Source: an uncultured Pseudomonadota bacterium (GTDB lineage Bacteria; Pseudomonadota; Alphaproteobacteria; RF32; CAG-239). From it: a stretch of 64,000 bases of DNA. The notes under the pieces were generated by a model. The model did not search any database and had not been told where the DNA came from. It saw only the letters and a program-made list of their open reading frames with translations. Both the position numbers and the translations under genes were made by a program. Every line of letters starts with the position of its first letter. Position 1 is the first letter of the stretch. Below, piece after piece: positions 6,394 through 64,000 of the stretch. The stretch lies in NCBI GenBank assembly GCA_949295005.1, contig CASFJL010000002.1, positions 21,507 through 85,506 on the forward strand, read 5' to 3'.

Positions 6394-6538
6394 ATTTGCT
6401 CTCTTCTTTTTATTAGTAGATATCGCAATAAAAAAAATAGTCAATCTTTTACAATAAGGTATGTATAAATTTGGTTGACATTTTGGGGAATCTGAATTGT
6501 TATAAAGCCAAGTTTATTTAATTTGGTTGGAAGGTAAA

Positions 6539-10999: not shown

Positions 11000-11071
11000 T
11001 TTACAAATCCTTTTTTTAATGATTATTATTAAAAATATATAGGTTATTTTGATTTTTTAGGCAAGGTTTTT

Positions 11072-11737
11072 ATGAATAAAGAAAAATGGTCTTTGGCTTT
11101 GGTTTTAACATTATTTAGCCCTATGGCTTTGGCACAAAATGTTAATGTTGTTGATGGAGCATATGGGCAAGTTACAACCGGCGGAACAACAGTTATTTCC
11201 GGACAACAGCGTATTTATAAAATTGATAATGCCGCTAAAAAGAGAGTTGAACAAGAAAACTTGCAAAATGAGAATACCTCTAAAAATATTGAAAACGAGG
11301 AAAAAAATGCTGTATCAACGTCTGATAAAAAAGATGTGGAGCCTTATATTGGAGGGTACAGAAAAAGAAGTTTGGAAGAAATTAAAGAGAATCTAAAGCT
11401 TTCTCCGCAAGAGCTTTTAGACAAGGTGAGAAAAGAACGCCAAGAGGCAAAAGAGCAAGCTGCAAAAGCTAATTTTTCAAACTCAGAATATAATAAAAAA
11501 GTTTCAGATGCGTTAAAAGCACGCCGAGAAGAGCGTAGAAACATGACTAAAGAAGAACGACGAGCCATTAAAGAAGAACTTAAAATGCTTTATAAAGCAC
11601 GTAGAGAAGAGCGCAGAAATATGACCAAAGAAGAACGCAGAGCTATTAAAGAAGAATTAAAAGCTAAGGAAAAAGCCAGACGAGAACAACAAAAAGAAGA
11701 TAGAAAAAAACGCAAAAAAATGCGCGATATGGATTAG
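11072..11737 (+). CDS. Secreted Lys/Glu/Arg-rich protein with an internal duplicated 23-aa peptide
   Basis: Signal peptide MNKEKWSLALVLTLFSPMALAQ. KARREERRNMTKEERRAIKEELK occurs twice. Followed by a terminator. Confidence 0.6.
   Translation: MNKEKWSLALVLTLFSPMALAQNVNVVDGAYGQVTTGGTTVISGQQRIYKIDNAAKKRVEQENLQNENTSKNIENEEKNAVSTSDKKDVEPYIGGYRKRSLEEIKENLKLSPQELLDKVRKERQEAKEQAAKANFSNSEYNKKVSDALKARREERRNMTKEERRAIKEELKMLYKARREERRNMTKEERRAIKEELKAKEKARREQQKEDRKKRKKMRDMD
11516..11662 (+). repeat. Intragenic tandem duplication (78-bp period)
   Basis: Copies at 11516..11584 and 11594..11662 encode identical 23-aa peptides. They differ at 10 of 69 nt, and every difference is synonymous. Confidence 0.9.
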
Positions 11738-11879: not shown

Positions 11880-14489
11880 ATGAAAGATACAAAAAATGAG
11901 GATAAGGTTGCTCAAAGCCTTGATGATTTGAACGAGATTATCGCTCGTGTCCAAAAGGCTCAGAAAGAATTTGCAACTTATTCTCAAGAACAGGTTGATA
12001 AGATTTTTGAAGCTGTGGCTATTGCTGCTAACCAAAACCGAATCCCCTTGGCTAAAATGGCCGTTGCCGAAACAGGTATGGGTGTGGTTGAAGATAAGGT
12101 GATTAAAAACCACTTCGCCGCTGAAGAAATTTATAATAAATATCGTCATGCCAAAACTTGCGGTGTGATTGAACGTGATGCCACCAACGGTTTGACCAAA
12201 ATTGCAGAGCCTTTGGGTGTGATTGCCGGTGTTATTCCGACCACAAACCCAACCTCAACCGCAATTTTCAAAACCTTGATTGCTTTAAAAACGCGTAACG
12301 GTATTATCTTTTCTCCGCACCCAAGAGCTAAAAAATGTACGGTTGAAACCGCTCGAATCTTGTTAAAAGCAGCAGAAGAAGCCGGTGCTCCGAAAGGTAT
12401 TATCGGTTGGATTGAAGAGCCGACCATTGAAGCTACTCAACACTTGATGAGCCATGATGGTATTAACCTCATTTTGGCAACAGGCGGTCCGGGAATGGTG
12501 AAAGCTGCATATTCTTCAGGCAAACCTGCTTTGGGTGTTGGTGCCGGTAATACACCTGCCCTGATTGATGAAACTGCTGATATTCAAATGGCTGTCAGCT
12601 CAGTTTTGATGAGTAAGACTTTTGATAACGGTATGATTTGTGCGTCTGAACAATCTGTGATTGTTCATAAAGATATTTATGATGATGTTAAAAAAGAGTT
12701 TGAATATCGCGGCGCTTATATCTTGAACAAAAAAGAGAGAGAAAAAGTTGGTGCAACCATTATTCAAAATGGCAAACTCAATGCCGCCATTGTTGGTCAA
12801 CCCGCTTATAAAATTGCCGAAATGGCCGGGGTTAAAGTTCCTGAAGCTACAAAAGTTTTGATTGCTGAAGTTGAAAAAATCGGCAAAGAAGAGCCTTTCT
12901 CTTTTGAAAAACTTTCTCCTGTGTTGGCAATGTATAAAGTTAAATCTTTTGAAGAAGGTGTTGACCATGCCGTTTCTCTTGTTGACTTTGCAGGCCCTGG
13001 ACATACATCCGTTCTTTATACAACAGACCATAATGCCGACAGAATCGCATATTTTAGCAGTAAAGTTGAAACAGGTCGTGTACTTGTTAATACGCCGTCT
13101 TCTCAAGGTGGTATCGGTGATTTGTACAACTTCAGACTTGATCCGTCTTTGACTTTGGGTTGCGGTTCTTGGGGTGGAAATGCCGCCAGTGAAAACGTGG
13201 GCATTAAGCACTTGATTAATACTAAAAATGTTGCTGAAAGAAGAGAAAATATGTTGTGGTTCAGAGTTCCTCCAAAAATTTATTTCAAACAAGGTGCAAC
13301 CGGCTTTGCTTTGAAAGAACTTATCGGTCATAAAAAAGCTTTCATTATTACCGATAAATCTTTGTTTAACTTGGGTTATACCGACAAAATTACATCCGTA
13401 TTGGAAGAAATGGGTATTGCTTATCAAATTTTCTCTGATGTTAAACCGGATCCGGATACAGATACCATTGCCGATGCTTTGAAGATGGTTAAATCTATGG
13501 AACCTGATGTTATTATCGCTTTGGGTGGTGGTTCTCCGATGGATGCTGCCAAAATTGTTTGGTTGATGTATGAACATCCGGAAGTTAAATTTGATGATTT
13601 GGCAATGCGCTTTATGGATATTAGAAAACGTATTTGTATGTTCCCAGATTTGGGCTCAAAAGCTTATATGGTGGCTATTCCGACAACTTCCGGTACCGGT
13701 TCTGAAGTAACACCGTTTGCCGTTATTACAGATTCAAGAACACACATCAAATATCCGATTGCCGACTATGCTTTGACACCAAATATGTCTATTATTGACC
13801 CTGATTTGGTTCTCTCTATGCCGCGTGGTTTGGCTTCTGCTTCAGGTATTGATGCTCTTACTCACGCTTTGGAGGCTTTGGCATCTATTTATGCAACACC
13901 ATTTACCGACGGTATTGCTTATGAAGCTATTCGATTGATTTTTGAAAATATTGAAAAATCTGTCAATGATGGTGCCAACAACCCGAGAGCAAGAGAAAAT
14001 ATGCACTATGCCGCTACTCTTGCCGGTATGGCTTTTGCTCAAGCTTTCTTGGGCGTTTGCCACTCAATGGCTCATAAACTCGGTGGTGAATATAACATTC
14101 CGCACGGTATTGCTAATGCTATGCTCATCTGCCAAGTGGTTAGATACAATGCCAATGAAAAACCGACCAAACAAGGTACTTTCTCTCAATATCATTATCC
14201 TGAAGGACGCGCTCGTTATGCTCGTGTGGCAGACTTGTTGCATTTATCTGGAAAATCTGATGAAGAGAAAGTTCAGAAATTGATTGAGGCTATTGCCAAA
14301 CTCAAGAAGAGTATCGGTATTCCGGCTTCTATCAAAGAATGGGGCGTTGATGAAAAAGTGTTCCTTAATAATTTGGATAGCTTGTCTGAACGCGCATTCG
14401 ATGACCAATGTACCGGTGCAAACCCTGTATATCCGTTGATTTCTGAAATCAAACAGATGTATTTGGATGCTTATTACGGTAAAATCTAG
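11880..14489 (+). CDS. adhE: Bifunctional acetaldehyde-CoA/alcohol dehydrogenase
   Basis: 869 aa. N-terminal ALDH domain ([25 protein letters not shown], catalytic MICASEQS) plus a C-terminal Fe-ADH domain ([19 protein letters not shown]). GAGGAG RBS. Confidence 0.97.
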
Positions 14490-42356: not shown

Positions 42357-44057
42357 ATGTCAATTAAATTAGCTGTACCTGAAAAAACAATTACTCACTT
42401 GAAACCAAGAATTTCGGTTATCGGTGTTGGCGGTGGCGGCGGAAATGCCGTAAATAATATGATTGCTCAACAATTAGAAGGTGTGGACTTCATTGTGGCA
42501 AATACTGATGCACAAGCATTGGCTCACTCTACCGCAAGCAGAAAAATTCAATTGGGTTTGGAAACAACTCAAGGTTTGGGTGCAGGGGCTCGTCCTGAGG
42601 TTGGAAAATTGGCCGCTGAAGAAGCTAAAGATGAAATTGAACGTGAGTTAGAAGGCGCAAATATGGTCTTTATTACTGCCGGTATGGGCGGTGGTACAGG
42701 TAGCGGTGCGGCTCCGGTTGTGGCTAAATTGGCAAAACAAAAGGGAATCTTAACTGTTGGCGTGGTTACAAAACCTTTTCAATTTGAAGGACGTAAACGC
42801 TATGAAACAGCCGAAGCTGCCGTTGAAGAATTTACCAAAGAAGTAGACAGTATTATCATTATTCCTAACCAAAACCTTTTTAGAATTGCTGACAAAAATA
42901 CAACTTTGGCAGATGCTTTTGTGATGGCTGATAATGTGTTGTATGCCGGTGTGCGTTCTATTACTGATTTGATGATGATGCCGGGCTTGATTAACCTTGA
43001 TTTTGCAGATATTAAATCTATTATGCAAGATAAAGGCAAAGCCATTATGGGTACCGGCGAAGCTGAAGGTGAGGATAGAGCTGTTAAAGCTGCTGAACAA
43101 GCTTTGTCTAACCCATTGTTGGATGATTGTTCTATGCGCGGAGCTAAAGGTGTTTTGATTAATATTACCGGTGGTTCTGACATTACATTATTTGAAATTG
43201 ATGAAGCTGCCAGCCGTATTAAGGAAGAAGTTGATGAAGATGCCAATATTATTTTTGGTTCTAGCTTTGATGAAAGCTTGGTTGGCAAAATCAGAGTTTC
43301 TATTGTGGCAACAGGTATTGGTGATGGAAAAAACGCTGTTAAGCCACAGCCAATGAAAAAAATTGTGCCTGAAACAACTTATATGGAGGAAGTTACTCGT
43401 CCGGTTGTTCCGAATGCTGAAACAGATTCAAATTTAGAGAAATTTGCAGCTGTTAAAGTTGAAAATAATTTTGAAGAGACAGAAACTTTTGAAGAAACTT
43501 CTTTGAAAATTAATGATGATGAACTAAAAGAAGTTAAAACCGAAAATATAGAAGAAGAACCTTTAATTCAAAAAACAGTAGATTCAGTTAATTTATCTAC
43601 AAACTTTGCAGATTTTTCTGATTTAGATAATTCTGAAAAAATGGAAAATATGCCTAAAGCATCTGCTCTGTTTAAAGCTATTATTAATAAAAGTGAAGAT
43701 TTAGGTGATAATTCTCAGTATGATTCTCTCTTAAATTCAATGGAAAATAGTTTTGCTCCTAAAACAAGTATTAAACAGGTTGAAGAAGAACCAGAGCTTT
43801 TTCCAAACCATAATCCGCAACCTTTTTCTGCTCGTTCAACTGAAGAAGCGGAAGAATTGATTGTTGATGATGATGAAAGAACACCGACATTAATTGAACG
43901 TGTTACCGGTTTTTCTATTGCACGTCGCAATAAAAAGAAAAGAGAAATTGAACATATGCAAGAGCCTATTTCTCCAAGCTTTTCTTCTACCGGAACTGAT
44001 TATGGTACGGAAGAAAGGTTGAATTTGGAAATTCCATCTTTCTTAAGAAGAAAATAA
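42357..44057 (+). CDS. ftsZ: Cell division GTPase FtsZ with a long acidic linker
   Basis: [11 protein letters not shown] and [14 protein letters not shown] disordered Glu/Asp/Asn-rich linker of about 230 aa. Conserved C-terminal peptide [10 protein letters not shown]. Confidence 0.97.
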
Positions 44058-44072: not shown

Positions 44073-44104
44073 AAAAGCACTCTATTCAGAGTGCTTTTTC
44101 TTTT
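44073..44104 (+). terminator. Rho-independent terminator of the dcw operon
   Basis: 7-bp stem gcactct/agagtgc, 4-nt loop, T-rich tail. Confidence 0.7.
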
Positions 44105-44327
44105 GCTTTTAATTTGTTTTACAGAAGACCTTGAATATTAATTTGCTGAATCTTTGTCGCTCTATGAGAATAAGCATGGTCAAATGCAAAGTTTGTATTT
44201 GATTCTCTAGTTTAGCGAAGTAAAATTGACTGCCCTCTTTATTGAATTATATAATGTAGATAATAAAATATTTTATCCCCATCTTATACTCGCTTATCAA
44301 CGGCTAATGCTTTTTACAGTTATATTG

Positions 44328-44350
44328 AAAGGCACCTTTAAGGTGCCTTT
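44328..44350 (-). terminator. Possible terminator of the Cys-rich gene
   Basis: Stem aaaggcacc/ggtgccttt with a short loop. The T tail is weak. Confidence 0.45.
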
Positions 44351-44396
44351 CAATACTATTTTGTTTGTTAGAAATTATTTATAATTGTTTTTTGTG

Positions 44397-47300
44397 TTAG
44401 TATTCCTCTCTTGAAGTTTTAGATAACGTTTCGTTCCAAATTTGTTTTGCTGATGTTTCGCTTGAATTGTTTCCTAACGTTCCTGGGCGACAATATTTAC
44501 CATTTCTATAGTCTGTAAAAGATGAGGATTGTGATGTTTGGCAACAATAGTAACTATTACCAATTTGTTCAATACTTTTATCGCAACAGTGCCCTGTATA
44601 TTGTACAGAACCTATTTTACAGCTTGAAATTGCGTATACTGTTGTCGTTTCACAATTCGGAGCAGTGAGCTTCTGAGTTTTTATTGAGTGCATAGGACTT
44701 TGTGAATTAAAGTAACCTGAGCTATAACGATAGCCGCTTGGAGCTGTTCTAGTTCCCGTGCAATCTTTTTCACACATTACAATACCGTAATAATAGCTTT
44801 GACGATATCCGTTAACAGGGTGATATCCTGTATTACATCCTGTAATTTTGTAATATGTATCTGTGCCACAGCTTTCATTAATTATTACTTCCTTGCTTTC
44901 ATATTTAGCATTTTGAATAGCAGATTCACTAGTAATAATAAATCCTTCTTTATATGCATCTTGAATATTAGGAGTACAATTCTTTACACAAGAAACATGA
45001 GTTTCTCCATTAATTACTTCTTCTTTCTTTGTATATCCGGTTTTGCAACTATATATCCAATATCGGCTTGCACGTTCACAATCAGTTGTTATATCCACTA
45101 CACGTGTAATACAACCACTTACGCCTTCGACTGCCGTACATTCAGCACGACTATTATATAAAGATGATGCCGCAAAGACAGTTCCTCCAAAGCTGTTTGG
45201 AACACAGTCTTTTTCGCATTTTAATGTTCTATATGTATTTCCTGACATAGAACTAACTTTATCAATTTTATGATATCCAGTTTTACAACTACTAATAAAA
45301 TATTTTTGTTTAGTATCACAAGATGTAGATATATAGAAACTGCGTGGTCCGCAATAATTTACACCTTCAACTGATTCACATTCTTCTCTGCTGTCAAATA
45401 TAGGACTAATCACTTCTCCTGAGCTACCAAAGGATCCGACAATACAATCTTTTTCACATTTGTTCGATTTTACGTGATATCCTGCTTGGCAGCTATCTAA
45501 TGAATATTTAGTTTCTTTATCTGTGCAGTCTGAGTTCTTAACTGTACATTCAGAGCAATTTCCATAATCAGGGCATGAATATAATGGAAATGCAGGACAT
45601 GTTTCCGTGCAGTCTGGTACACATTCATTAGAATCATAGTGAAAACCTAAATTGCAACCGTTGAATTTATATTTCTTGTCTTTATCGTCTCCTAAAGTGC
45701 ATTCTGAGTTTTGAAGTGTACAAACAGAACAATCTGCGTTAAGAGGACAAGATTTTAAATCATATCCGGCACAAGTTTCTTCCGGACAATCCGGTTTACA
45801 CTCTCCATTGTCTTCATGAAAACCTGGATTACAGCCATTATATTTATATCTTGTTCCTTTGCTTGTACAATTAGTGCTTTGTAATTTACATTCAGAGCAA
45901 TCTGCGTTAAGAGGACAAGATTTTAAATCATATCCGGCACAAGTTTCTTCCGAACAATCTTTTTTGCATTCTTCACCTTCTAGGTGGAAATCCGGTTTAC
46001 ACCTACTGAATTTATATCTCTTATTTTTATCGCCTCCTAAAGTACATTCTGTGGTCTGAAGTGTGCATTCTGAGCACTCTGCATTAAGAGGACAAGATTT
46101 TAAATTATAACCGGCACAAGTTTCTTCCGAACAATCTTTTTTACATTCTTCACCTTCTAGGTGGAAACCTGGTTTACACCGGCTGAATTTATATCTCTTA
46201 TTTTTATCGCCTCCTAAAGTACATTCTGTGGTTTGAAGCGTGCATTCTGAGCACTCTGCATTAAGAGGACAAGATTTTAAATTATAGCCAAAGCAAGTTT
46301 CTTCCGTGCAATTTAGTTCACATTTGCTATTGACTTCATGATATCCAGATTTACACGAAACAAATTGATATTTTGTGCCACTGGTTGAACAGTCTGTATC
46401 CGTAATGGTACATTCGTTACAGTTTGCATGTTCAGGGCATGAGGCTAAAGTGTATCCGGTACAAGTTTCTTTGGTACAAGTTTGGACGCATTTGCCATTT
46501 TGTGGAACATAATCATCTTCACAGGAATCTAGTTTGAATTTTATTTCTCCCTTGGTACAATCTGTGGTTTGTGTTTGGCATTGAGAACAATTGCCTTTTT
46601 CCGGACAAGATGTTAAATTATAGCCAAAGCAAGTTTCTTGTGTGCAATTTGGTTCACATTTGCCATTTACTTCATGAAAACCAGATTTACACGAAACAAA
46701 TTGATATTTTGTGCCACTGGTTGAACAGTCTGTATCTGTAATGGTACATTCGTTACAGTTTGCATTTTCCGGGCATGAGCTTAAAGTGTATCCGGTACAT
46801 GTTTCTTTGGTACAATCTTTTTCACATTTGCCATTGACTTCATGGAAATCAGGTTTACACGAAACAAATTGATATTTTGTGCCACTGGTTGAACAGTCTG
46901 TATCCGTAATGGTACATTCATTGCAATTTGCATTAAGAGGGCATGAGGCTAAAGTGTATCCGGTGCAAGTTTCTTTGGTGCAGGTTTGAACGCATTGTCC
47001 GTTTTGCGCCGTATAACCACTTTCACAAGAATCCAGTTTGAATTTTATCTCTCCTTTGGTACAATCTGTGGTTTGTGTTTGGCATTGAGAACAATATCCT
47101 TTGTCTGGACAAGATTTTAAATTATATCCATAGCAATTTGATTCTGTGCAGTTGGGAAGACATTTTCCTCCTTCCAAATAAAAACCCATTTGACAGCTTA
47201 AAAATTTATACTTAGTTCCTTGTGATGAACAATTTGAATCTACAACCAGACATTGTTCACAATCAGCATTGGCTGGGCATGAGCTTAAAGTATAGCCTTT

Positions 47301-48815
47301 ACATGAATTTTCTGTACAACTTTTAACGCATTGGCCATTTTCTATTGAATATCCCATATCACAACTGTCTAATCTATATTTTGTTGCTCCGGTTGAGCAA
47401 TCTGCATATTGAACAGTGCACTCTGTACAATGTCCATATTGTGGACATGAGTCTAAAGTGTATCCACTGCATGTTGTTTGACTTTGATAACAATCTTGAT
47501 ATGTGCATTCTCCAGGAGAACCTAGTTGAGCATAACCATTTTCGGTGTCGCAACTTTTATATTTAAAGCACTTTCCTCTTTGACAATCAGATGTTTGATA
47601 TTCATTACTTAAGGTTGTACATATATATCCTGTTGGGCATTTGTCTTGAAATGTTCTATTTATTCCCCATAAATCTCCGCATGAAATTTTTTCACAATCA
47701 CTAACGCAACGACCTAAACTGTCTGCGTGATATCCTGATTTGCAAGGCCCTAATTTGAATCTTTGACTTTCTTCACAAGATGTTGTAACCGAAGTGCATG
47801 ATTCGCAATCCATATTTTCCGGACAGGTGGTCATAAAATATTCTGTTGTGTCACATGTTTTTGCTGAACATGTTTTGGCGCAATATGAATTATTTATCAT
47901 TTGGTAGCCAGCTTTGCAACTATCTAATTTATATTTTTTATCTCCTTCTGAACAATCTGCATATTGCACTGTACATTCCGAACAATTACCATTTTCGGGG
48001 CATGTATTTAAACTATATGCGGCACAACTGGTTTGTGTCTTATAACATTCTTGATATTCACAATATCCAGGTGAGCCTTGTTGGGCATACCCATTGGCTG
48101 TATCACAACTTTTATATTTAAAACATTTTCCTTTTTTACAGTCTGAAGTTTGATATTCATTACTTAAAGATGTACAAATATAACCGGTAGGGCATTTATC
48201 TTGAAATGTTCTGTCCATTCCAGTTCCGCCACCGCATCCAATAACTTGACAATCTTTAACACATCTTCCACTATCATAATGGTATCCTGAAAGACAGTTT
48301 GTTGTCGGTTTGTACCATGGCGTTTTTGCACACTTAGAAGTAACAGCAGTGCATGATTCACAAACCGTTCCTTCGGGGCAGGAATAAGAAAAATATTTTG
48401 ATGTATCGCATGTTTCCACATCGCAATATGCTTCGCAATATGTGCCAGAATCAGAAATTTTATATTTTTGATCACCATCTGTTAAACATGTGATTAATTT
48501 TTTGTATTTTGGGTCTATCGGGCAGGATAAGCACTTTCCGTGTGGGGGGCAAGATGGTAATGTAAAACCAAATTTTTCACAGTTTTCATTACGTTGGTAA
48601 TGAAATGGAATTGAAGAATAATGTGAGAGCCAAACATCATCGTTGGCATTAGGCAAAAACACCGCTCTTGCCAATTGGTAAGAACCTTGAGGGAGAGAAT
48701 TTAGAGTATTGCTATTTTGCTTTGCTTGAATGTTAAAACTTGAAAAACATAAAATAGTGGTCAAAATAGCTATCATTGTTTTGAATGACTTTTTCTTAAA
48801 ATATAATTTCAACAT
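44397..48815 (-). CDS. Giant secreted cysteine-rich modular repeat protein (about 1472 aa), family unknown
   Basis: Single uninterrupted ORF. GGGGAGA RBS before the ATG at 48815. Signal peptide MLKLYFKKKSFKTMIAILTTILCFSSFNIQA. About 168 Cys by hand count. About 17 modules have the spacing C-x4-C-x7-C-x5-C-x2-C-x6-C-x11(14)-C-x10-C. No TM anchor, beta-barrel or sorting signal was recognised. Confidence 0.8.
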   Translation of the reverse strand: MLKLYFKKKSFKTMIAILTTILCFSSFNIQAKQNSNTLNSLPQGSYQLARAVFLPNANDDVWLSHYSSIPFHYQRNENCEKFGFTLPSCPPHGKCLSCPIDPKYKKLITCLTDGDQKYKISDSGTYCEAYCDVETCDTSKYFSYSCPEGTVCESCTAVTSKCAKTPWYKPTTNCLSGYHYDSGRCVKDCQVIGCGGGTGMDRTFQDKCPTGYICTSLSNEYQTSDCKKGKCFKYKSCDTANGYAQQGSPGYCEYQECYKTQTSCAAYSLNTCPENGNCSECTVQYADCSEGDKKYKLDSCKAGYQMINNSYCAKTCSAKTCDTTEYFMTTCPENMDCESCTSVTTSCEESQRFKLGPCKSGYHADSLGRCVSDCEKISCGDLWGINRTFQDKCPTGYICTTLSNEYQTSDCQRGKCFKYKSCDTENGYAQLGSPGECTYQDCYQSQTTCSGYTLDSCPQYGHCTECTVQYADCSTGATKYRLDSCDMGYSIENGQCVKSCTENSCKGYTLSSCPANADCEQCLVVDSNCSSQGTKYKFLSCQMGFYLEGGKCLPNCTESNCYGYNLKSCPDKGYCSQCQTQTTDCTKGEIKFKLDSCESGYTAQNGQCVQTCTKETCTGYTLASCPLNANCNECTITDTDCSTSGTKYQFVSCKPDFHEVNGKCEKDCTKETCTGYTLSSCPENANCNECTITDTDCSTSGTKYQFVSCKSGFHEVNGKCEPNCTQETCFGYNLTSCPEKGNCSQCQTQTTDCTKGEIKFKLDSCEDDYVPQNGKCVQTCTKETCTGYTLASCPEHANCNECTITDTDCSTSGTKYQFVSCKSGYHEVNSKCELNCTEETCFGYNLKSCPLNAECSECTLQTTECTLGGDKNKRYKFSRCKPGFHLEGEECKKDCSEETCAGYNLKSCPLNAECSECTLQTTECTLGGDKNKRYKFSRCKPDFHLEGEECKKDCSEETCAGYDLKSCPLNADCSECKLQSTNCTSKGTRYKYNGCNPGFHEDNGECKPDCPEETCAGYDLKSCPLNADCSVCTLQNSECTLGDDKDKKYKFNGCNLGFHYDSNECVPDCTETCPAFPLYSCPDYGNCSECTVKNSDCTDKETKYSLDSCQAGYHVKSNKCEKDCIVGSFGSSGEVISPIFDSREECESVEGVNYCGPRSFYISTSCDTKQKYFISSCKTGYHKIDKVSSMSGNTYRTLKCEKDCVPNSFGGTVFAASSLYNSRAECTAVEGVSGCITRVVDITTDCERASRYWIYSCKTGYTKKEEVINGETHVSCVKNCTPNIQDAYKEGFIITSESAIQNAKYESKEVIINESCGTDTYYKITGCNTGYHPVNGYRQSYYYGIVMCEKDCTGTRTAPSGYRYSSGYFNSQSPMHSIKTQKLTAPNCETTTVYAISSCKIGSVQYTGHCCDKSIEQIGNSYYCCQTSQSSSFTDYRNGKYCRPGTLGNNSSETSAKQIWNETLSKTSREEY
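45447..48425 (-). repeat. Intragenic tandem repeat block (168-177-bp modules, plus a 555-bp super-repeat)
   Basis: Two super-repeats of about 185 aa at 47319..48425. Modules of 55-59 aa at 45447..47318. Near-identical 177-bp neighbours at 45957..46133 and 46134..46310. Confidence 0.9.
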
Positions 48816-48849
48816 AATACATCTCCCCAATACAATATCCCCATTATCC

Positions 48850-48877
48850 ATTATATATATTTTTTGTTTTTTTTCAA
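48850..48877 (-). promoter_or_regulatory. Candidate sigma70-type promoter for the Cys-rich gene
   Basis: Minus strand reads TTGAAA (48877..48872), 16 nt, TATAAT (48855..48850), about 35 nt upstream of the ATG at 48815. An AT-rich genome makes chance matches likely. Confidence 0.35.
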
Positions 48878-48884
48878 GAAGATT

Positions 48885-49934
48885 TTATATTCCTTTGGCG
48901 GATTTTATTGCTGCTTCAAGGCAACAAGGATAATTTTTCATTGTCCAATCGCCGATAACTTGAAAATTGGAAAAATCAGGATGATGAAAATTTGCGCGTA
49001 ATGCTTGGTTTTTTTCATCTTGTTTGATTGTGGCTTTTTTGTGCTTGATAATTTGGTAGGGTGGAAGAAATGCCGCCTGAATATGGTTTATTTGGCGAAT
49101 CTCTTGCCAAACTTTTCTTGCCAATTCATCATCTGAAAAATTGACTCCATTAGCATCTGATATGGTAACGCAGACAACGTCTTTGTTGATAAAAACCCAA
49201 TCAGCAATGGCATCTGATAGGCCGATAAACGGAATGTTTTTGGGCAGAGTTAATTCAACGCTTGTGCGATAAAAAATATTGATAATCGTGTTAAAATCAA
49301 ATTTCGGACCATTGAAAATTTTGTGATAATTGTGAGCATCAAGAGCTGAAATAACAATATCATTGTCATTTATTTTTACATTGTCTTTATTAAACAAAAG
49401 GCTACTTATTTTATTATCTTGGCTTTCGTATGATTTTAAGACCCAACCATATCTTATTTCATCTGCATATTTTTTTAAGGAATCAACTAAGTTTTGGCTT
49501 AAATCTCCATGAGAATAATACATTTTTGTTTGGAATGGTAAAAATGGGAAAAGCTTGAAAATTAGGCTTTTAATTAAGCTTTTAGAAATGTCTTGAGCAT
49601 TGGTGTTGAATATGGAACGCAAAATTAACGGAAGCTCAAGCCACGGAGAGGTATGGATTTTATCATTTTTCCAAAAATTTATTTTTTTGTGAAAGTCTTT
49701 TTGAAGAATAAGTTTGCGGCACTCTTTATTTGCGCCTAAAATTACATGTGTGGCGTTGTCTATATTTCTTTGTAGTTTGTCACTGTAAAAAGAATAGCAT
49801 CTCCCACCTACATGAGATGCTGCTTCATAAATAACAACATTTGCTTTGGTATTTTTTTGTTTGATAAACTTGGCGGCGGATAAACCTGAAATTCCACCAC
49901 CGATGATATGATATGTGGGTATTCTATTATCCAT
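48885..49934 (-). CDS. hpnE: HpnE-like FAD-dependent hydroxysqualene oxidoreductase (compact, 349 aa)
   Basis: Dinucleotide fold IIGGGISGLSAA...YEAASHVGGR. C-terminus GDWTMKNYPCCLEAAIKSA. Follows hpnC-hpnD. Confidence 0.75.
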   Translation of the reverse strand: MDNRIPTYHIIGGGISGLSAAKFIKQKNTKANVVIYEAASHVGGRCYSFYSDKLQRNIDNATHVILGANKECRKLILQKDFHKKINFWKNDKIHTSPWLELPLILRSIFNTNAQDISKSLIKSLIFKLFPFLPFQTKMYYSHGDLSQNLVDSLKKYADEIRYGWVLKSYESQDNKISSLLFNKDNVKINDNDIVISALDAHNYHKIFNGPKFDFNTIINIFYRTSVELTLPKNIPFIGLSDAIADWVFINKDVVCVTISDANGVNFSDDELARKVWQEIRQINHIQAAFLPPYQIIKHKKATIKQDEKNQALRANFHHPDFSNFQVIGDWTMKNYPCCLEAAIKSAKGI

Positions 49935-49935
49935 A

Positions 49936-50769
49936 TTATTTTTGCATAAAAGCTTTGAGCGCTAAAGAGAGTTTTTTGAATTTGCTGATTTGCGGTTTGG
50001 GAGAAATAATTTCCCAACCACGATTTTGCATAATATCAAAATAGTGTTTATAGATGTTGGCCATCATCAATACGGGACGAGTGATTTTTTTATCTAAGTT
50101 TTTGAGCAATTGATAAGAAACGGTATAATCTTCCGCGGCAATTTTTGCCAATTCTTCTCTGGCTTTGGCAAGGTTGGGGTGTACAACAACGCTTAAGGGG
50201 TCTGTTGTTGTGATACCGGCTTTTTCCAACATTTCTTTGGGAATGTATAGGCGTCCGGCCTGGGCGTCTTCTTTAACATCTCTTAAAATGTTGGTAATTT
50301 GCAAAGCATTGCCAAGCGTGGTGGAAAGTTTTTCAATTAAGGCTTCATCTTTAACGCCAAATATTCTTAATGAAAGATTTCCCGGAACACCTGCTACACC
50401 ACGGCAGTATTCATTAAATTGTTCCATGCTGGGGGCTCTTAACGGTGTGGGTAAATCCATAGAAATGCTGTTAATGAGGCGGACAAATTCTTCTTTAGGC
50501 AGCTTAAAACGCATACAGTTTTTATATATTTTGCGTCCGATTTCAGTTGCTGGAATTTTTTTATCATAAATGTTATTAATTTCTTGTTTCCATGCCTCAA
50601 TCAATTCTAATTTTTCAGAAACTTCTTTGTCTCCGTCAACAATATCATCAATATGTCTGCAAAAAGCATATATGGTATACATGGCATTTCTTTTGCCAAA
50701 AGGCAAAAAGCGCATGCTCCAAAAAAATGATGTTCCTGATTTTTTGACTATTCTTTTGATATTGTTCAT
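49936..50769 (-). CDS. hpnD: Presqualene diphosphate synthase HpnD (SQS/PSY family)
   Basis: SFFWSMRFLPFGKRNAMYTIYAFCRHIDDIVD and NILRDVKEDAQAGRLYIP. Confidence 0.85.
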   Translation of the reverse strand: MNNIKRIVKKSGTSFFWSMRFLPFGKRNAMYTIYAFCRHIDDIVDGDKEVSEKLELIEAWKQEINNIYDKKIPATEIGRKIYKNCMRFKLPKEEFVRLINSISMDLPTPLRAPSMEQFNEYCRGVAGVPGNLSLRIFGVKDEALIEKLSTTLGNALQITNILRDVKEDAQAGRLYIPKEMLEKAGITTTDPLSVVVHPNLAKAREELAKIAAEDYTVSYQLLKNLDKKITRPVLMMANIYKHYFDIMQNRGWEIISPKPQISKFKKLSLALKAFMQK

Positions 50770-50781
50770 TTTTATACTTTC

Positions 50782-51633
50782 TTAAGGCAAGGTTTTCTTC
50801 TTAGTGGTTAATCCTTTGAATATTCCGCTAAATATGGCGACAAGCCAATCAATTTTAGATAATTTGATTTCTTTGGCCAAAATATCTTTCTTTAATAACT
50901 TTTTTACCATAATATTGGTTAAAGAAAGGATAATACATACTTCAATACGCAAACTTGTACTCTTGATGATTGGCGGTAAGAGGTTGCCTTCTTTTATTAA
51001 ACCTTTAGTTAAATTCATCAAGTGTTCAACGGCTTTTTTGATATTTAAGTTTGATTTTTCTTTTAAGATATCTTCAGATGTAATATGATATTTTTTCATG
51101 ATATCTTTGGGAAGATATAATCTTTTAAGCAGCATATAATCATATTTTAAGTCTTGAACGTGGTTGACGATTTGTAAAGCTACGCACAATGATGTTGCCG
51201 GAAGGTAAGTTGCTTTGTTTTCTTGGTGAATGGCAAGCATAAATTTGCCGACAGGTGCGGCGGAATATTTGCAATAATTGACCAATTGATCCCATGTCTT
51301 ATATTCAAAACCTAAAGCATCTTGCCGGAAGGCAATTAATAAATCGGTTGCAAGATTGTCTGAAAGCTGAAATTCATCAAATTTTTGCTTGAGTTCCTTA
51401 ACAAACTTTAATTTTTGCCCATGATATTTTTTGTTTTTGGTAAAAATATCTTCCAGTTCTCTTAATTTGTTGATTTTTTGTTCTGAAGAGATATTCGGGT
51501 TATCTGCAATATCATCGGCATAGCGGGCAAATTGATAATAATTTCCCACGATGTTTCTGAGCTTTTGTTGAAACATCATCATTCCAACCGGAAAATTTTC
51601 CTGATACTTATTTTTGTGGCGCAATTTTAGCAT
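50782..51633 (-). CDS. hpnC: Hydroxysqualene synthase HpnC (SQS/PSY family)
   Basis: N-terminal ENFPV motif, then [13 protein letters not shown] and [10 protein letters not shown]. Confidence 0.8.
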
Positions 51634-53139: not shown

Positions 53140-54150
53140 ATGAAAATTGTTTGGTTGAGTTTGTTTGTTTTTTCTTTGTCTTCCCTAGCATTTGATGCTT
53201 GGGGACAAACTCCTACCGACCTTACTTTTGATCAGATGCCTAATTTGCGCCCCATTGCTCAAAATGCTCCTGCAAGCAATAATGAAACTATGCGCTTAAA
53301 TTTGCCAAAACCTAATCAAAATGCAGATTTTGCTACCACAATTGAAACAGATAGTTTATCTGAAACATTGAAAAATCAACCCAAGCAAGAACTGAATGGT
53401 GTTGATGTGGCTGATGAAGCTGAAACTTGGGTTGGAAAATTGGCAAAATCAGCTCCTGAAAAAATATCAGAATTAAAATCTTCTGTGGAATCCGGCTCTG
53501 ATGAAAATTTATTGAAATTGGTTGAAAACAGCAAACAATCTATCGGGCGTTCTAATGCTTCTGTTTTTGATATCTCCGGCGTGATGTTGCGCATGAATTT
53601 GACTCAGGCTGAAAAAGCTATGTTGAGCAGAGGTTTTAAATTGATTTCTAAAAAAATGGAAATCCCTAACTTTATAAAATGGCGTAATGAAGAAAAATGC
53701 AGAGGAAATGGTGTGGTCGGCTATGAAAGATTGGCTAATTGCGTGCTTGAATATGCCAAAAAACAAAATCATCAATATACAGAAACCGCAAAATTTTCTA
53801 AGTTTGAAACAAAAGAAGAAGTTGAAATCAGATTAACATCTAATTTTACGGGGAATAAGGTTTATAAAATTGTTTATAAAAGTATGACACCTAAGGTTAA
53901 TGGAAGTGGTTTGAAAGCTGCTTATTTACATAATATTAAAGTTTTTGATTTTTGGAAAAAAGTTAATCAAAAATATGGAACTCCCGATGATAAAAACAAC
54001 GTGATTTGGGGATTGGGAATGAATAAACCTTATTTGAAAGCTTCAACAGGTTTTTTGTTGTTGGAAGATCCTATGCTTAGAGAATTGGATTATACTAGAA
54101 TGTCTCGAGAAGATCAGAGATTTATGAATACGGATTTATATAGTTTTTAA
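53140..54150 (+). CDS. Hypothetical secreted protein (336 aa)
   Basis: Signal peptide MKIVWLSLFVFSLSSLAFDAWGQ. No domain recognised. Ends 6 nt before chpT. Confidence 0.55.
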   Translation: MKIVWLSLFVFSLSSLAFDAWGQTPTDLTFDQMPNLRPIAQNAPASNNETMRLNLPKPNQNADFATTIETDSLSETLKNQPKQELNGVDVADEAETWVGKLAKSAPEKISELKSSVESGSDENLLKLVENSKQSIGRSNASVFDISGVMLRMNLTQAEKAMLSRGFKLISKKMEIPNFIKWRNEEKCRGNGVVGYERLANCVLEYAKKQNHQYTETAKFSKFETKEEVEIRLTSNFTGNKVYKIVYKSMTPKVNGSGLKAAYLHNIKVFDFWKKVNQKYGTPDDKNNVIWGLGMNKPYLKASTGFLLLEDPMLRELDYTRMSREDQRFMNTDLYSF

Positions 54151-60450: not shown

Positions 60451-61140
60451 TTAACGTGGAGGCAGTGTATTCTCTTTGAGCCATTCTTTGAGCTCTTTAA
60501 CGTCTTTTACTTCCGGAATCCAAGAAAGCTCTTCGGGTAAATCTGTTGTAAATTCGCAACGCATACGGATCGGGTGTGCTCCAACATTAATAGCAGCGTG
60601 TTGATTATATATTCTGTCATCAACCAAAATTGTTTCTTCTGCTTTTAATCCATATTTTTCAAAGCAGCTTTTAAGCATGTCTTCTTTGGCAGTATCATGC
60701 ATAAACTTGCCATGTTGAACACATTCAATGGTAAGAAAATCGGTAACATCTTTGAGTAATGTGTTTAAAAACTTTTTTTTGGTTTCAACATCAAAAGTGG
60801 CAGACATGGTAAATTGTCTGTAACCTAAATCGTGCAATTCTTTTAGCGTTTCAATCACGTTGGGATATAATGGGCGGTTGCAAAAAAATTCGGGAGAATG
60901 ACAAAAATCATAATCCATTTGTTCTCCCAAAGTTGGGTGTGTTTTCAACTCTAATGCGCCATATTTAGGAACAATAGGGAGAGCTTTGGGTAAATCTTGC
61001 CATTGCAGATTTTTATAAGTGTCTTTATAGTTGGGGTGATTGGTTAAAAAATTGTAGTATGCGTAGTTTAAGTTTGCTAAAACACCGTCTACATCCCAAA
61101 AGATGTTCTTTATGGTAATTTTATCCATTTTATTCTCCAT
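60451..61140 (-). CDS. HAD-superfamily hydrolase
   Basis: DxDx motif IFWDVDGVLANL and distal ILVDDR. Confidence 0.65.
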   Translation of the reverse strand: MENKMDKITIKNIFWDVDGVLANLNYAYYNFLTNHPNYKDTYKNLQWQDLPKALPIVPKYGALELKTHPTLGEQMDYDFCHSPEFFCNRPLYPNVIETLKELHDLGYRQFTMSATFDVETKKKFLNTLLKDVTDFLTIECVQHGKFMHDTAKEDMLKSCFEKYGLKAEETILVDDRIYNQHAAINVGAHPIRMRCEFTTDLPEELSWIPEVKDVKELKEWLKENTLPPR

Positions 61141-61211
61141 ATTATTTTCTTTTAACCTAAGCTATCATATATATTTTTTTATTACAATCTTAATATATAA
61201 AAATTATATAT

Positions 61212-61559
61212 TTATTTTTCATTAGATAATTTTTGTTTATATAAGGAAAGAGCTAAATTATTTGATATTGCCGGTGCGGAGATAACTTTGGCTGTTCCGG
61301 TGGCGGCAAGTCTGCAATTTTTGAATCTTTGAAGATTTTCATTTATATTGTCATTAAAATTTGGCGTGCGGGATTGCGCTTTTAAAAAACTTTCTAATAA
61401 TTTTTTTGCCGCAGCACCGCAAGCGGCACCAATGACCGGATTTCCAAAAGATGCTCCAATTGCAGCTCCGGCAATTTCTGGTACATAATCTTTTAAATTA
61501 TTGGTTATTTTATAAATATGATGTCTGAGTTTGTTTAATCTTATTTCCGTTTTATTCAT
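61212..61559 (-). CDS. Hypothetical small protein with a glycine-zipper-like segment
   Basis: EIAGAAIGASFGNPVIGAACGAAAKK. 115 aa. No other features. Confidence 0.45.
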   Translation of the reverse strand: MNKTEIRLNKLRHHIYKITNNLKDYVPEIAGAAIGASFGNPVIGAACGAAAKKLLESFLKAQSRTPNFNDNINENLQRFKNCRLAATGTAKVISAPAISNNLALSLYKQKLSNEK

Positions 61560-61733
61560 TGTCGTTACTCCGCATCAATCAACTATATTTTATATATATC
61601 ATTTTTTGACAAAAAACACAATCTTTTTGTTTAATGTATGGCCGATATGATTTTGTAAATGTTTTTTCTCATTTGGCTTACGGTTTTTTTACAAATATCG
61701 GATATTAATATTTTTATTATAGGAGAGATTTAT

Positions 61734-62066
61734 ATGAAATATTTATTTGCTTGTATTTTGTTTTTTCTTGGCGCTTGTCAAAATAATTATCATATTTATC
61801 AATATGATAACGGTGATGATTATGTGCAAGACGGAATGGTTCGTATTATTGAGCCGTCAACACAAAAAATGGGTTATGCTACACCTGACGGCAAAGTGGT
61901 GATAAAACCTGAGTTTGCATTTGGTTATCCTTTTAAAAATGGTGTTGCAAAAGTGACTTATGAGGGGCATCAAGCCGAAGTTTCGGCTTCTGACAATGAA
62001 TATCATTATTGGAAGAGTGAACATTGGTTTTATATTGATAAAAAAGGAAATCAGGTGAAAAAATAA
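61734..62066 (+). CDS. Lipoprotein, WG-repeat-like
   Basis: AGGAGAG RBS. MKYLFACILFFLGAC lipobox. DGMVRIIEPSTQKMGYATPDGKVVIKPEFAFGYPFKNGVAKV resembles the KWG/WG beta repeat. Confidence 0.55.
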   Translation: MKYLFACILFFLGACQNNYHIYQYDNGDDYVQDGMVRIIEPSTQKMGYATPDGKVVIKPEFAFGYPFKNGVAKVTYEGHQAEVSASDNEYHYWKSEHWFYIDKKGNQVKK

Positions 62067-62071
62067 GCAAA

Positions 62072-62106
62072 AAAATGCCCTATTATTTTCTATAATAGGG
62101 TATTTT
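62072..62106. terminator. Rho-independent terminator between convergent genes
   Basis: 9-bp stem ccctattat/ataataggg, 5-nt loop, T-rich tail. Confidence 0.55.
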
Positions 62107-62114
62107 CATAGATA

Positions 62115-63347
62115 TTATTTCTCTTGAGAGAACATATTTTTCAGAGCAGCTAAGCTATCTAATCCGTTAAAGGTTTTTTCTTCTTTTTTATTTTTGTTTG
62201 CTTGTTTCTTGGCAGCTTTTAGCAGTTCTTTCTCATTTGTTTCTTTTTGTTTTTCTTCTTTGTTCTCAGCATTTTCATATCCTGCTATATCGGCAAGAAA
62301 ATCATATCTGTTATCTTCCCATTGCTGTTGTCTTTCATTAAATTGGCAGTGTTGATCCATTTTTGCTACCAAATCCATTACTCTATCTCTAACTTGGTAA
62401 AAGATATTTTGTGTTTCTTGCGGGGCTTCATAAATGTCTCCTTGCGGTGTTGGAATTTCAAGCTTTTTCATAACACCTAACGCTATTTGAGTGTAACCTT
62501 TGTTTTGTTGTTCATATCCGGCTTCATCAAAATAATTAAAACCATAGTCTTCATCATTTACAAAAAACTCAATAAGTTTGTCTGCGGCAATTTCTTCCGT
62601 ATGAGAGAGTTTTTCTTGTAATTTGATTTCTTGTTCTTCTTTATTTTTTATATCTTGAAGATTTTGAATATCTTCCTCTCTGATGTTGAGCCCATGAAGT
62701 TCTGATAATCTTTGTTTCAAAATATCTATTTTTTCATTGGTTGTTATTACAGATTTAATAATATCTGCTTTTTCTTCCAGAGTTTTTTGATAAAGATTTT
62801 CTTTTCTTTCTTCCACAGGGTGGATAATATATTGCGTAAATTCATCTTCGGTAATATCTCCTTTGGCAAAGTCTTTAAATTCATTTAATTTTGATAAATC
62901 TGTGGCAATATCTTTATATCCAGTGTTTTCTAGTGTGTTTTCCGGAATATTTTGAGCAACTTTTAAGCCCATTTTTCTTAAAGCTTCTTTTCTTGCAATG
63001 ATTTTGTTTTCTTTTATTTTATCTGCAATGGCTTTGCTTACCATATTTTGATATTTTTTGGATAAGCCATAATCTGCAAGCAGTGTTTCTATATTGAGAT
63101 TTTCAACGTCATTTGATGTTGAAATAACATTTAACACTTTTTCATAAGTTGCTTGCTCTTCTTGGGGATCTTGATTAGAAAATTCTACTTGCCCATCTTC
63201 AATGGAAGCATATAATCTTTTTTGTTTTAATGTTGTTCTATAGTTGGTTGAAATCTCCTTAATTTTAGTATTTTCAACATGTAAGGTATCTGTAATTTCT
63301 GTGTATTCTAAATCTAATTTGTCTATTTTAGAATTATTAATATCCAA
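62115..63347 (-). CDS. Hypothetical acidic protein; possibly the C-terminal part of a larger interrupted gene
   Basis: ORF starts at a TTG with no RBS and no ATG for about 100 codons. It is in the same frame as the upstream ORF, separated from it by one TAA. Confidence 0.45.
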   Translation of the reverse strand: MDINNSKIDKLDLEYTEITDTLHVENTKIKEISTNYRTTLKQKRLYASIEDGQVEFSNQDPQEEQATYEKVLNVISTSNDVENLNIETLLADYGLSKKYQNMVSKAIADKIKENKIIARKEALRKMGLKVAQNIPENTLENTGYKDIATDLSKLNEFKDFAKGDITEDEFTQYIIHPVEERKENLYQKTLEEKADIIKSVITTNEKIDILKQRLSELHGLNIREEDIQNLQDIKNKEEQEIKLQEKLSHTEEIAADKLIEFFVNDEDYGFNYFDEAGYEQQNKGYTQIALGVMKKLEIPTPQGDIYEAPQETQNIFYQVRDRVMDLVAKMDQHCQFNERQQQWEDNRYDFLADIAGYENAENKEEKQKETNEKELLKAAKKQANKNKKEEKTFNGLDSLAALKNMFSQEK

Positions 63348-63380
63348 TCTTTCAATAGTTGAAGAGGATAAATCAACTTT

Positions 63381-64000
63381 TTATTCGGCATTGACATTGT
63401 TATATTCAAAATTGTTTACAGACATATAATCGCCATCAAATTCTAGGACATTTATATCTGAGATTGATATTTTATCTGCATGAACAAAACGCGTGTTAAT
63501 ATCAATAGCTTTATTTTCTTTATTTGAAGATATCTTAAGCTCTTTTACACGGTTTTCATAAAAGTTAATTCTATAACTATTTTCGTTGTTTATAAAAATA
63601 TTAACAGATAAATTAGGATTATTAATTCTAAAATGAGTATGTTCTTGCGGCGTAATTTGCAGCTCTGCTTTGTTATCTTGTATTAAATCAAATTTTTGGA
63701 GCGTATTTTCATCAATAGTAGTGGAGCTATTGTAGCGTTGCTTCTCAAATTTTTGCTGTATAACGGCTAATTCTTGAGGAACAGGTTGAGACAATGTTTT
63801 TAACGTGATTGCGTCATTTACTTTGTCATTAATAGCCTCTTGCAGATAAATTTCCGGAATTTTATTTTTTTGAACAAATTCATTATATTCTTCTAAGGAT
63901 TTATTTGTAGCAATATTTAATGCTTGTTCTACTTGGCTCTGAAAACTCTCTTCTACAAAAGATTTTAATTCTCCATTATAAATATAAGTAGAGTCCAGAA
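63381..64000 (-). CDS. Hypothetical protein, 5' end outside window
   Basis: I translated 63795..64000 on the minus strand in this frame and found no stop, so the gene runs off the window. The ORF-track start at 63794 is a TTG and probably internal. Confidence 0.5.
   Translation of the reverse strand, partial: LDSTYIYNGELKSFVEESFQSQVEQALNIATNKSLEEYNEFVQKNKIPEIYLQEAINDKVNDAITLKTLSQPVPQELAVIQQKFEKQRYNSSTTIDENTLQKFDLIQDNKAELQITPQEHTHFRINNPNLSVNIFINNENSYRINFYENRVKELKISSNKENKAIDINTRFVHADKISISDINVLEFDGDYMSVNNFEYNNVNAE

Follow-up and report, generated by a model that had tools for sequence, protein, structure and literature searches.

A large, predicted secreted protein of tandem cysteine-rich modules at the variable ftsZ-hpnE site of an uncultured alphaproteobacterium

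This report concerns one cysteine-rich gene within a 64,000-nucleotide stretch of contig CASFJL010000002.1 (assembly GCA_949295005.1), the whole of which is referred to here as the window. The gene lies on the minus strand at 44397..48815, stop codon included, and the ORF call gives a cysteine-rich protein of 1,472 amino acids (aa). It occupies a 4.8-kb gap between ftsZ, which belongs to a plus-strand murB-ftsQ-ftsA-ftsZ series, and hpnE, which stands directly upstream of the gene and on the same strand in a trmFO-hpnC-hpnD-hpnE series. The ChpT gene is located nearby.

The gene forms part of a single minus-strand open reading frame (ORF) at 44397..48851 that would give 1,484 aa when counted from its first ATG. 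The ATG at 48815 is the second in frame (Met13 of the longer ORF) and is favoured as the start codon on sequence grounds, because the -10 box of the best promoter-like site covers the first ATG, because the putative ribosome-binding site GGGGAG (48823..48828, minus strand) sits 7 nt 5' of 48815 and because the corresponding Met is the first residue of the homologues P0003 and P0035. The promoter-like site, TTGAAA-16-TATAAT (48850..48877, minus strand), agrees with the consensus at 11 of 12 positions, has its -10 hexamer over the ATG at 48851 and holds the equal best promoter-like score within a 5.2-kb region, its function being putative as it is a consensus match. A database protein (P0001) carries 12 extra N-terminal residues and is otherwise identical to the window protein, and the identical protein is on record from 2 contigs. 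A perfect 15-bp palindromic hairpin (44323..44355) is found 41 nt beyond the stop codon, with a T-tail on the plus strand only. Between ftsZ and the stop codon the plus strand also carries a near-consensus promoter-like sequence, TTGACT-18-TATAAT (44226-44255), followed by this hairpin, and the two together (44226-44355) could mark a small transcript or be no more than a terminator. Nothing was found when the window was scanned for Rfam families and tRNAs.

The protein begins with a predicted Sec signal peptide at aa 1-31 (48723..48815, minus strand; MLKLYFKKKSFKTMIAILTTILCFSSFNIQA followed by K), in which a basic n-region, a hydrophobic h-region and a small-x-small cleavage site are recognised by rule of thumb, the position of cleavage, between NIQA and KQ, having been judged by eye. 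This is the only hydrophobic segment of the protein (19-residue Kyte-Doolittle mean of 1.53); no hydrophobic segment was found in the mature protein, where the maximum is 0.88. A lipoprotein was rejected on inspection, as the sole signal-peptide Cys lies in T-I-L-C with no canonical lipobox of the form [LVI][ASTVI][GAS]C, and neither a transmembrane nor a C-terminal sorting anchor was recognised in the hydropathy scan or in the tail. An earlier reading of the locus, made from the sequence alone and called here the sequence-only reading, had described one 4.4-kb ORF with a good ribosome-binding site and a signal peptide and had recognised no membrane anchor, barrel or sorting signal; GGGGAG and the sole hydrophobic N-terminal segment confirm the former, and Pfam, NCBIfam and hydropathy agree with the latter.

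The signal peptide is followed by a conserved N-terminal head at aa 32-74 (48594..48722, minus strand; ..LP.GSYQLARAVFLPNANDDVWL..), delimited by alignment and regular expression. In an alignment of the window protein with 21 relatives positions A4, A19, L24 and P25 are invariant and a Q and an F are present in at least 90% of the 22 sequences, and the head core expression [FWY][LM]P[DNQAS] matches the N-terminal region of 37 of the 165 relatives fetched. The window protein fits a family that we defined in this work by a signal peptide, then [YF]Q[LI]A[RK]..FLP[DN] and then modules of the type C..Y.L..CP....C..C...KYK...C..GY......C. In its AlphaFold2 (AF2) model the head has essentially no regular secondary structure (predicted local distance difference test score, pLDDT, of 54-66, compared with 89-92 for the adjoining module), and such a low-confidence, unstructured segment fits a linear motif needing a partner. 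Over aa 1-362, a part that comprises the signal peptide, head, modules 0 and 1, an insert and modules 2 and 3, the window protein runs colinear with P0035 at 44% identity. Beyond aa ~362 the two diverge, P0035 passing into a Cys-poor C-terminal region and the window protein into further modules, and the C-termini of head-bearing relatives are unrelated to one another.

Cysteine accounts for 167 of the 1,472 residues (11.3%), close to the approximately 168 (about 11 percent) counted by hand in the sequence-only reading, and 166, an even number, are left after removal of the predicted signal peptide. In the 43 other window genes the mean Cys content is 1.11% and the maximum 3.5%. Successive Cys-Cys distances are periodic (3, 4, 7, 5, 2, 6, 11 or 14, 10), corresponding to C-x4-C-x7-C-x5-C-x2-C-x6-C-x11(14)-C-x10-C, the spacing previously described, plus a 3-residue linker, and this pattern is far beyond chance. 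A strict regular expression finds 13 canonical modules, and an iterated hidden Markov model (HMM) recovers 22 module-like units made up of one degenerate N-terminal module, 15 full modules, two insert modules and four long degenerate C-terminal modules, so that the two 9-Cys inserts and the four longer modules keeping only the module end, both noted earlier, reappear in the computed layout. The module profile scores the window protein at E=2.9e-187. The Cys columns are conserved in the module alignment and the residues between them vary.

All parts of the array are encoded on the minus strand. A degenerate first module at aa 75-129 (48429..48593; HMM E=1.7e-8, AF2 pLDDT 89-92) precedes two super-repeats of ~185 aa at aa 130-496 (47328..48428), each composed of a module, a 9-Cys insert module reading RTFQDKCPTGYIC... 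and a further module, and the two copies are 76% identical as DNA repeat D3; regular expression and HMM both locate them. They lead into an unbroken run of 11 canonical 8-Cys modules at aa 499-1120 (45456..47321), delimited by regular expression, HMM and DNA repeats, which measure 52-56 aa from first to last Cys with a 3-aa linker after each. Four longer degenerate modules of ~75-80 aa, found by regular expression and HMM at aa 1121-1410 (44586..45455), keep only the ...C-x-TGYH...C end, and one homologous long module can be seen by eye in P0003. The protein closes with a tail containing CC doublets (44400..44585; ..HCCDK..YYCCQ..) and a hydrophilic end, identified by regular expression and inspection, whose 'Y-C-C' motif is also present in P0002 and P0038.

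Several features indicate that the gene is real. DNA identity between module copies is only 61-83% and the gene contains no exact repeat of 80 nt or longer, so that collapse or expansion of repeats during short-read assembly, a danger the sequence-only reading had named, appears unlikely. The Nei-Gojobori dN/dS ratio between paralogous modules is 0.10-0.47, and dS reaches 0.17-0.46 even between copies that are 89-91% identical in protein. The copies have thus amassed silent changes while staying under purifying selection, which argues that the frame is translated.

Comparison with described families gave no assignment. The whole protein matched no Pfam and no NCBIfam family at E<=10, a scope that includes curated NCBIfam Cys-rich repeats such as the Myxococcus cysteine-rich repeat (TIGR02232), and phmmer against all PDB sequences gave no meaningful match. 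When 63 single modules were compared with Pfam, the best members of the EGF clan were EGF_MSP1_1 (E=0.02, 6 modules), EGF_3 (E=0.086) and EGF_CA (E=0.41), and among furin/TNFR-type families RANK_CRD_2 reached E=0.061 (2 modules) and Furin-like_2 E=0.25 (1 module). Membership of the EGF-like superfamily (EGF, EGF_CA, cEGF, hEGF, EGF_MSP1_1) was rejected, no match attaining a gathering score, as were the furin-like and TNFR-type repeats (PF00757, PF15913, PF18278), which are sub-threshold on modules and give nothing on the whole protein. Searched against PDB sequences, the best match of the module profile fell in a CCP domain, on the stretch 'SCNSGYHLIG' (E=0.65), and that of a profile of head plus module on the second EGF domain (EGF2) of factor IX (E=0.06). 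The AF2 model of a single module is confident (pLDDT 89.9) and dominated by one long beta-hairpin; Foldseek found nothing significant for it in PDB (best E=1.1) or BFVD (best E=0.8), and for a model of the head with the first module the top matches, which are not significant, were the EGF2 domains of factors Xa and IXa (E~1, TM-score 0.31). Small disulfide domains are hard targets for Foldseek, and so the module is not proven to be a new fold.

The sequence-only reading had likened the modules to EGF-like and furin-like repeats and to the CXXC-rich surface antigens of protists. Taken as homology the first likeness fails, with scores at chance level in Pfam, the PDB profile search and Foldseek, and the C-x-x-G-[YF]-H...C module end, which resembles EGF, cEGF and CCP hairpins, is probably best regarded as a real motif that gives no evidence of membership. 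Nor did the protist kinship hold up, as no VSP or surface-antigen family appeared in any scan; the protist antigens (Giardia VSP, Paramecium) were rejected on this absence from the Pfam scans, on the lack of a hydrophobic C-terminal segment and on the presence of one CXXC per module. A classical autotransporter and an Lcl/DUF1566 adhesin were likewise rejected for the window protein, in which Pfam found neither PF03797 nor Lcl_C (PF07603). The same reading had also held that the module belongs to no nameable family, and this stands, no Pfam or NCBIfam family and no characterised repeat family with a known role having been matched. A literature search found no description of the module, of the head motif or of Cys-rich proteins of RF32/CAG-495 bacteria.

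A word-indexed protein search returned four relatives only (P0002-P0005), and the same type of search with the 63-module alignment gave no match, as short queries share too few index words. An exhaustive profile search of 1.84 billion protein-cluster representatives returned 459 matches at E<=1e-3, 180 at E<=1e-10 and 17 at E<=1e-30, almost all of the 459 being unnamed metagenome proteins. A whole-protein scan of representative-genome contigs found no relative, which places the exact species outside the representative genomes, and a scan of metagenome contigs with the close-head alignment A5 gave no match. The sequence-only reading had regarded such a protein as unusual for a bacterium, which holds in so far as no curated family covers the module, but with at least 459 cluster representatives the protein belongs to an uncatalogued bacterial family and is no one-off.

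In a set of 488 modules drawn from 151 proteins, the 8-Cys form (80 modules) and a 6-Cys form lacking columns 2 and 31 (73 modules) were the most frequent Cys patterns. Cys at columns 15 and 21 co-occur strongly (phi 0.88) and those at columns 7 and 24 less so (phi 0.50), and C43 is present in 98% of modules. These statistics tentatively, and weakly, suggest the pairing C15-C21, C7-C24 and C43-C54, with an extra C2-C31 bond in the 8-Cys version.

The relatives display four architectures, namely (a) a signal peptide, a 'SYQLAR..FLPD' head, modules and a variable C-terminus; (b) 3-4 six-Cys modules behind a signal peptide and a 'C..P.C..LGY....C....CPFD.SYK.C' head; (c) large proteins in which a long repetitive passenger-like region follows the modules (P0009, P0011, P0013 and P0018); and (d) modules combined with Lcl_C/DUF1566, with Peptidase_S8 or with a StcE beta-sandwich. 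The four proteins of architecture (c) are of 1,399-2,328 aa with 3-11 modules each. In P0011, where the modules lie at aa ~177-400, an autotransporter barrel (PF03797) is present at 1177-1372 (E=1.1e-14); the C-terminal barrel is confirmed in this protein only, the other three being similar by eye. The P0009 cluster has 29 members on contigs of up to 354 kb. Lcl_C (PF07603) is found in P0005 and in 7 of 83 relatives, the StcE beta-sandwich in 1 of 83 and Peptidase_S8 (subtilase) in P0006, and the only NCBIfam families seen among the 83 are adhesin_Lcl (2) and T4SS_AnkY (1), the latter an ankyrin effector model matched at 2e-4. Weak cEGF matches occur in P0011 (32.8 bits summed, no single stretch passing) and in 3 of the 83 relatives.

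We also observed that P0009, P0011, P0013 and P0018 share an unusual order of a signal peptide, an ankyrin-like segment (by eye; no Pfam support at E<=0.001), a Gly/Ala-rich hydrophobic stretch ('WWWIGGAAALGGG..'), modules and the passenger-like region. Three consecutive genes at positions 1-8197 of one contig (L003) encode Cys-rich proteins with the module or variants of it, forming a paralogue cluster in which P0005 has the Lcl_C (DUF1566) match and a 592-aa neighbour is similar by eye only. P0007 (4,005 aa) and P0151 are giant proteins that combine the module with long 'C..C.AG.Y......C' runs, ephrin-receptor/GCC2-like by eye, and with other Cys-rich units.

The ftsZ-hpnE site differs between genomes. 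In the closest genome (L006, BRZ_QQ__bin19) the flanks are 82-87% identical at the DNA level, ftsZ and hpnE lie 80 bp apart and a 4.8-kb segment corresponding to 44100..48884 of the window, containing the gene and intergenic DNA including the promoter-like site and hairpin, is missing (L006 9750-9754). The site is empty in two further genomes (L016 and L019), the spacing in the three being 69-80 bp. In the metagenome-assembled genome (MAG) BRZ_FT__bin57 (L012) a gap of 1,883 bp contains two small secreted Cys-rich genes on the minus strand (9817-10476 and 10480-11517), and one of the products, a relative of ~307 aa, has the same signal peptide, a head ('SSYQLAKSTFLPDRFDD') of the 'SYQLAK..FLPD' type and a single 8-Cys module. 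The second ORF there, of ~210 aa, has a 'C..PPTCESLGY...KCPFN' head and different Cys repeats. Module-bearing ORFs also follow ftsZ in L009 and L010, whose contigs end 0.9-1.2 kb downstream of ftsZ, within the ORF in L009 and ~360 bp from it in L010. The content of the ftsZ-hpnE site therefore varies, and the window protein is a lineage-specific version that has been greatly enlarged. Of the 80 related contigs about 17 stop no more than ~2.6 kb past ftsZ, and assemblies might be broken here by repeat genes. In the junctions that were inspected there was no recognisable mobile-element feature, integrase or repeat, and recent horizontal transfer was rejected on these grounds and on the GC content of the gene (0.359), which equals that of the flanks (0.359 and 0.341; genome 35% GC).

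Judged from its sequence, the host appears to be a CAG:495/Scatocola-like alphaproteobacterium of the gut. When species-representative genomes were scanned with the FtsZ core, 80 loci were recovered, all from uncultured or MAG-derived Proteobacteria by title, and wherever a source can be recognised it is the gut. The window FtsZ shares 97% identity with that of the gut MAG uncultured Alphaproteobacteria BRZ_QQ__bin19 and 82-94% with those of Proteobacteria bacterium CAG:495, Candidatus Scatocola and gut MAGs, whose names point to human (MGYG-HGUT, UMGS, Hadza), mouse (MGBC), chicken, deer and reindeer sources. We take CAG-495, CAG-239 and RF32 to be nested in one GTDB lineage. For gut taxa of this kind the three names serve as genus, family and order labels, respectively (PMC9253600).

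Other features of the window were observed in passing. The 566-aa FtsZ (42357-44057, plus strand) has an acidic low-complexity linker of ~230 residues before its conserved C-terminal peptide. The squalene-synthesis genes hpnC-hpnD-hpnE (48885-51633, minus strand) co-occur with AdhE and pyruvate-phosphate dikinase (55-2142 and 11880-14489, plus strand), and hopanoid-precursor synthesis together with fermentative metabolism is an odd combination in a gut alphaproteobacterium of ~35% GC. NCBIfam gave no match for ORFs of 213, 528, 530, 152, 336, 229, 410 and 137 aa, which lie at 2769-5093, 6527-8553, 53140-54150 and 60451-63794; the 530-aa ORF stands just upstream of mdoH.

The evidence supports a Sec-exported protein of tandem Cys-rich modules, and an extracellular or surface role, which the sequence-only reading had also envisaged, is the best reading by analogy because the module recurs in relatives with an autotransporter barrel, Lcl_C, subtilase or StcE-like domains. 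Going further, we put at about even chances the proposal that in this uncultured gut alphaproteobacterium the protein serves outside the cell as a stalk or adhesin stiffened by disulfides. The mature protein has an even number of Cys, the module exists in 6-Cys and 8-Cys versions with paired Cys co-variation and AF2 predicts a beta-hairpin unit, all of which are points for a disulfide module. Following export some 83 disulfides would be formed by oxidation in the periplasm and the protein would be carried across or onto the outer membrane. The conserved, apparently unstructured head ('SYQLAR..FLP[ND]..DD') may hold the protein close to the cell or direct its sorting. Compact 8-Cys modules, about 18 in all, would each fold as a beta-hairpin unit closed by four disulfides (tentatively C2-C31, C7-C24, C15-C21 and C43-C54) and together make a rigid, protease-resistant stalk, properties that we infer to be useful in the gut, and the divergent C-terminal 350 aa, with the four long modules and the CC-rich tail, would form the distal and probably ligand-binding end. 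The array may have grown by tandem duplication at the variable ftsZ-hpnE site, its copies then being kept by purifying selection. We propose this division into head, stalk and distal end because it matches the logic of many bacterial surface adhesins, in which a conserved N-terminal element, a repeat extender and a variable distal end are combined.

A number of points weigh against this proposal. Pfam, NCBIfam and hydropathy revealed in the window protein neither an outer-membrane anchor nor a beta-barrel, lipobox or known sorting signal, and no secretion or partner gene was seen beside the window gene, P0002 or P0004. The head is modelled at low confidence, which makes its anchoring role speculation. 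The habitat is anoxic, and a search of 30 window ORFs found no Dsb-type oxidoreductase. Finally, the disulfide pairing is drawn from co-occurrence statistics that are partly confounded by shortened module alignments, which inflate some of the correlations.

Some of the same observations can be read in favour of a periplasmic or released thiol-rich protein whose Cys bind metal or buffer redox stress in the manner of a metallothionein-like or zinc-knuckle array. A very high share of Cys residues, a single CxxC in each module, the lack of a visible outer-membrane anchor, secretion partner or Dsb gene and a host that looks fermentative and anoxic (AdhE, pyruvate-phosphate dikinase, gut MAG relatives) would all suit such a protein; however the number of Cys per module is always even and changes in pairs between the 6-Cys and 8-Cys versions, a Zn(Cys)4 site would call for two knuckles and not the single CxxC present, and zinc-finger or metallothionein matches on isolated modules are no better than E~0.03. 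As AF2 also gives a compact beta-hairpin unit without metal and the module is found in autotransporter-barrel and Lcl_C adhesin-type proteins, we consider metal or redox binding unlikely. A self-assembling coat or S-layer-like lattice on the cell, with no individual stalk or adhesin, seems at least as improbable. That the protein is large, hydrophilic, Ser/Thr-rich and secreted with no enzymatic domain, that its gene has its own strong promoter-like site and that it is lineage-specific and variable, as surface coats often are, speak for a coat, but the closest relative manages without the gene and another has a version of ~307 aa only, which is unlike an essential coat, relatives employ the module as an internal spacer of multidomain proteins and no S-layer or SLH-type domain was found by Pfam or NCBIfam.

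The EGF-like module end raises the question as to whether the protein is a eukaryote-derived EGF-like or furin-like host mimic, acquired horizontally by a gut bacterium and acting on host receptors, with the weak cEGF matches in relatives (P0011; 3 of 83) and the factor IXa/Xa EGF2 domains among the top non-significant Foldseek and PDB matches pointing the same way. This we regard as very unlikely, given that no EGF or furin family match is significant (Foldseek E>=1, TM-score <=0.35), that the gene has the GC content of its flanks, that homologues sit among bacterial genes wherever context was examined and that the 8-Cys spacing is unlike the 6-Cys EGF pattern. There is only the slightest chance that the gene is an assembly artefact, produced by a chimeric insertion or by expanded or collapsed repeats, or a decaying, unexpressed gene. 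The assembly is of metagenome type, the closest genome lacks the gene at this site and the L009 contig ends inside a module-bearing ORF and that of L010 close to one, as repeats often cause. Against this the frame of 1,472 codons is uninterrupted, the module copies share 61-83% DNA identity with a longest exact repeat below 80 nt, dN/dS is 0.10-0.47 with substantial dS, composition follows the flanks, the junctions lie in intergenic DNA with promoter, ribosome-binding site and hairpin in place and the same protein is recorded on 2 contigs.

The stalk or adhesin reading can be set beside several known systems. EGF-like, cEGF (PF12662) and CCP arrays, as in fibrillin, Notch and coagulation factors, are likewise exported and built head-to-tail from small (~40-55 aa) beta-hairpin-rich modules, and cEGF and CCP share the module end C-x-x-G-[YF]-x-x-x-x-x-C. 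The EGF fold consists of two small beta-sheets with six Cys paired C1-C3, C2-C4 and C5-C6, whereas the window module has eight Cys, other spacing and a 'SCP-x4-C-x2-C' core, shows no significant sequence or fold match to EGF, cEGF or CCP and belongs to a bacterial protein of native composition. Legionella Lcl and other Lcl_C/DUF1566 (PF07603) proteins combine a repeat stalk with a terminal domain, and in relatives the same Cys module is fused to Lcl_C; the Lcl stalk however consists of collagen-like GXY repeats with no disulfide module, and the window protein is without the Lcl_C domain. Classical autotransporters (type Va, PF03797) are approached by the relatives carrying 3-11 modules N-terminal to a passenger-like region, but neither a beta-barrel nor a beta-helix passenger region is present in the window protein. 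With the giant Gram-negative adhesins LapA, SiiE and MpIBP it would share a conserved N-terminal element, a tandem-duplicated extender of near-identical small domains and a divergent distal end; these adhesins have Ca-binding Ig-like repeats, type I secretion and a C-terminal signal, in contrast to the Sec signal peptide and Cys-rich modules of the window protein. The Giardia VSPs and CXXC-rich protist antigens resemble it in having more than 10% Cys, CXXC motifs and a gene content that varies between strains, and differ in that the window protein gives no profile match to them, has no C-terminal transmembrane anchor, carries one CXXC per module and has a bacterial host.

What is new here is an undescribed Cys-rich module and an undescribed N-terminal head, and what is known is the design of bacterial tandem-repeat surface or secreted proteins. 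A more far-reaching proposal, which we hold to be doubtful, is that the 8-Cys module, which would have had 6 Cys ancestrally, adopts a new disulfide-rich fold and that together with the head it represents an unrecognised way to build and retain polymorphic surface proteins in gut Alphaproteobacteria, the head acting as a linear signal for docking with a putative envelope partner or for sorting, the array serving as a protease-proof, adjustable stalk and the C-termini (Lcl_C-like, beta-helix-like or long Cys modules) acting as interchangeable payloads.

Alphaproteobacteria of the CAG:495/Scatocola type recur in human and animal gut metagenomes and their interactions with hosts and other microbes are poorly charted. 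Because it is used in autotransporter-barrel and adhesin-type proteins, the module is probably a major building block of the cell surface of these organisms, and the family of at least 459 cluster representatives to which it belongs is unnamed by any curated database. Were the protein to prove an ordinary secreted repeat protein, it would still provide a new domain family to annotate and a strain-level marker of surface variation at ftsZ-hpnE. The conserved linear head motif could indicate an undescribed retention or sorting step, and a compact bacterial module of ~55 residues with four disulfides, if true, would constitute a new structural family and a candidate protease-stable scaffold. On the basis of its sequence the module is, in our view, a solid candidate for a domain family not described before, and perhaps for a new fold, from a gut lineage that has received little study.

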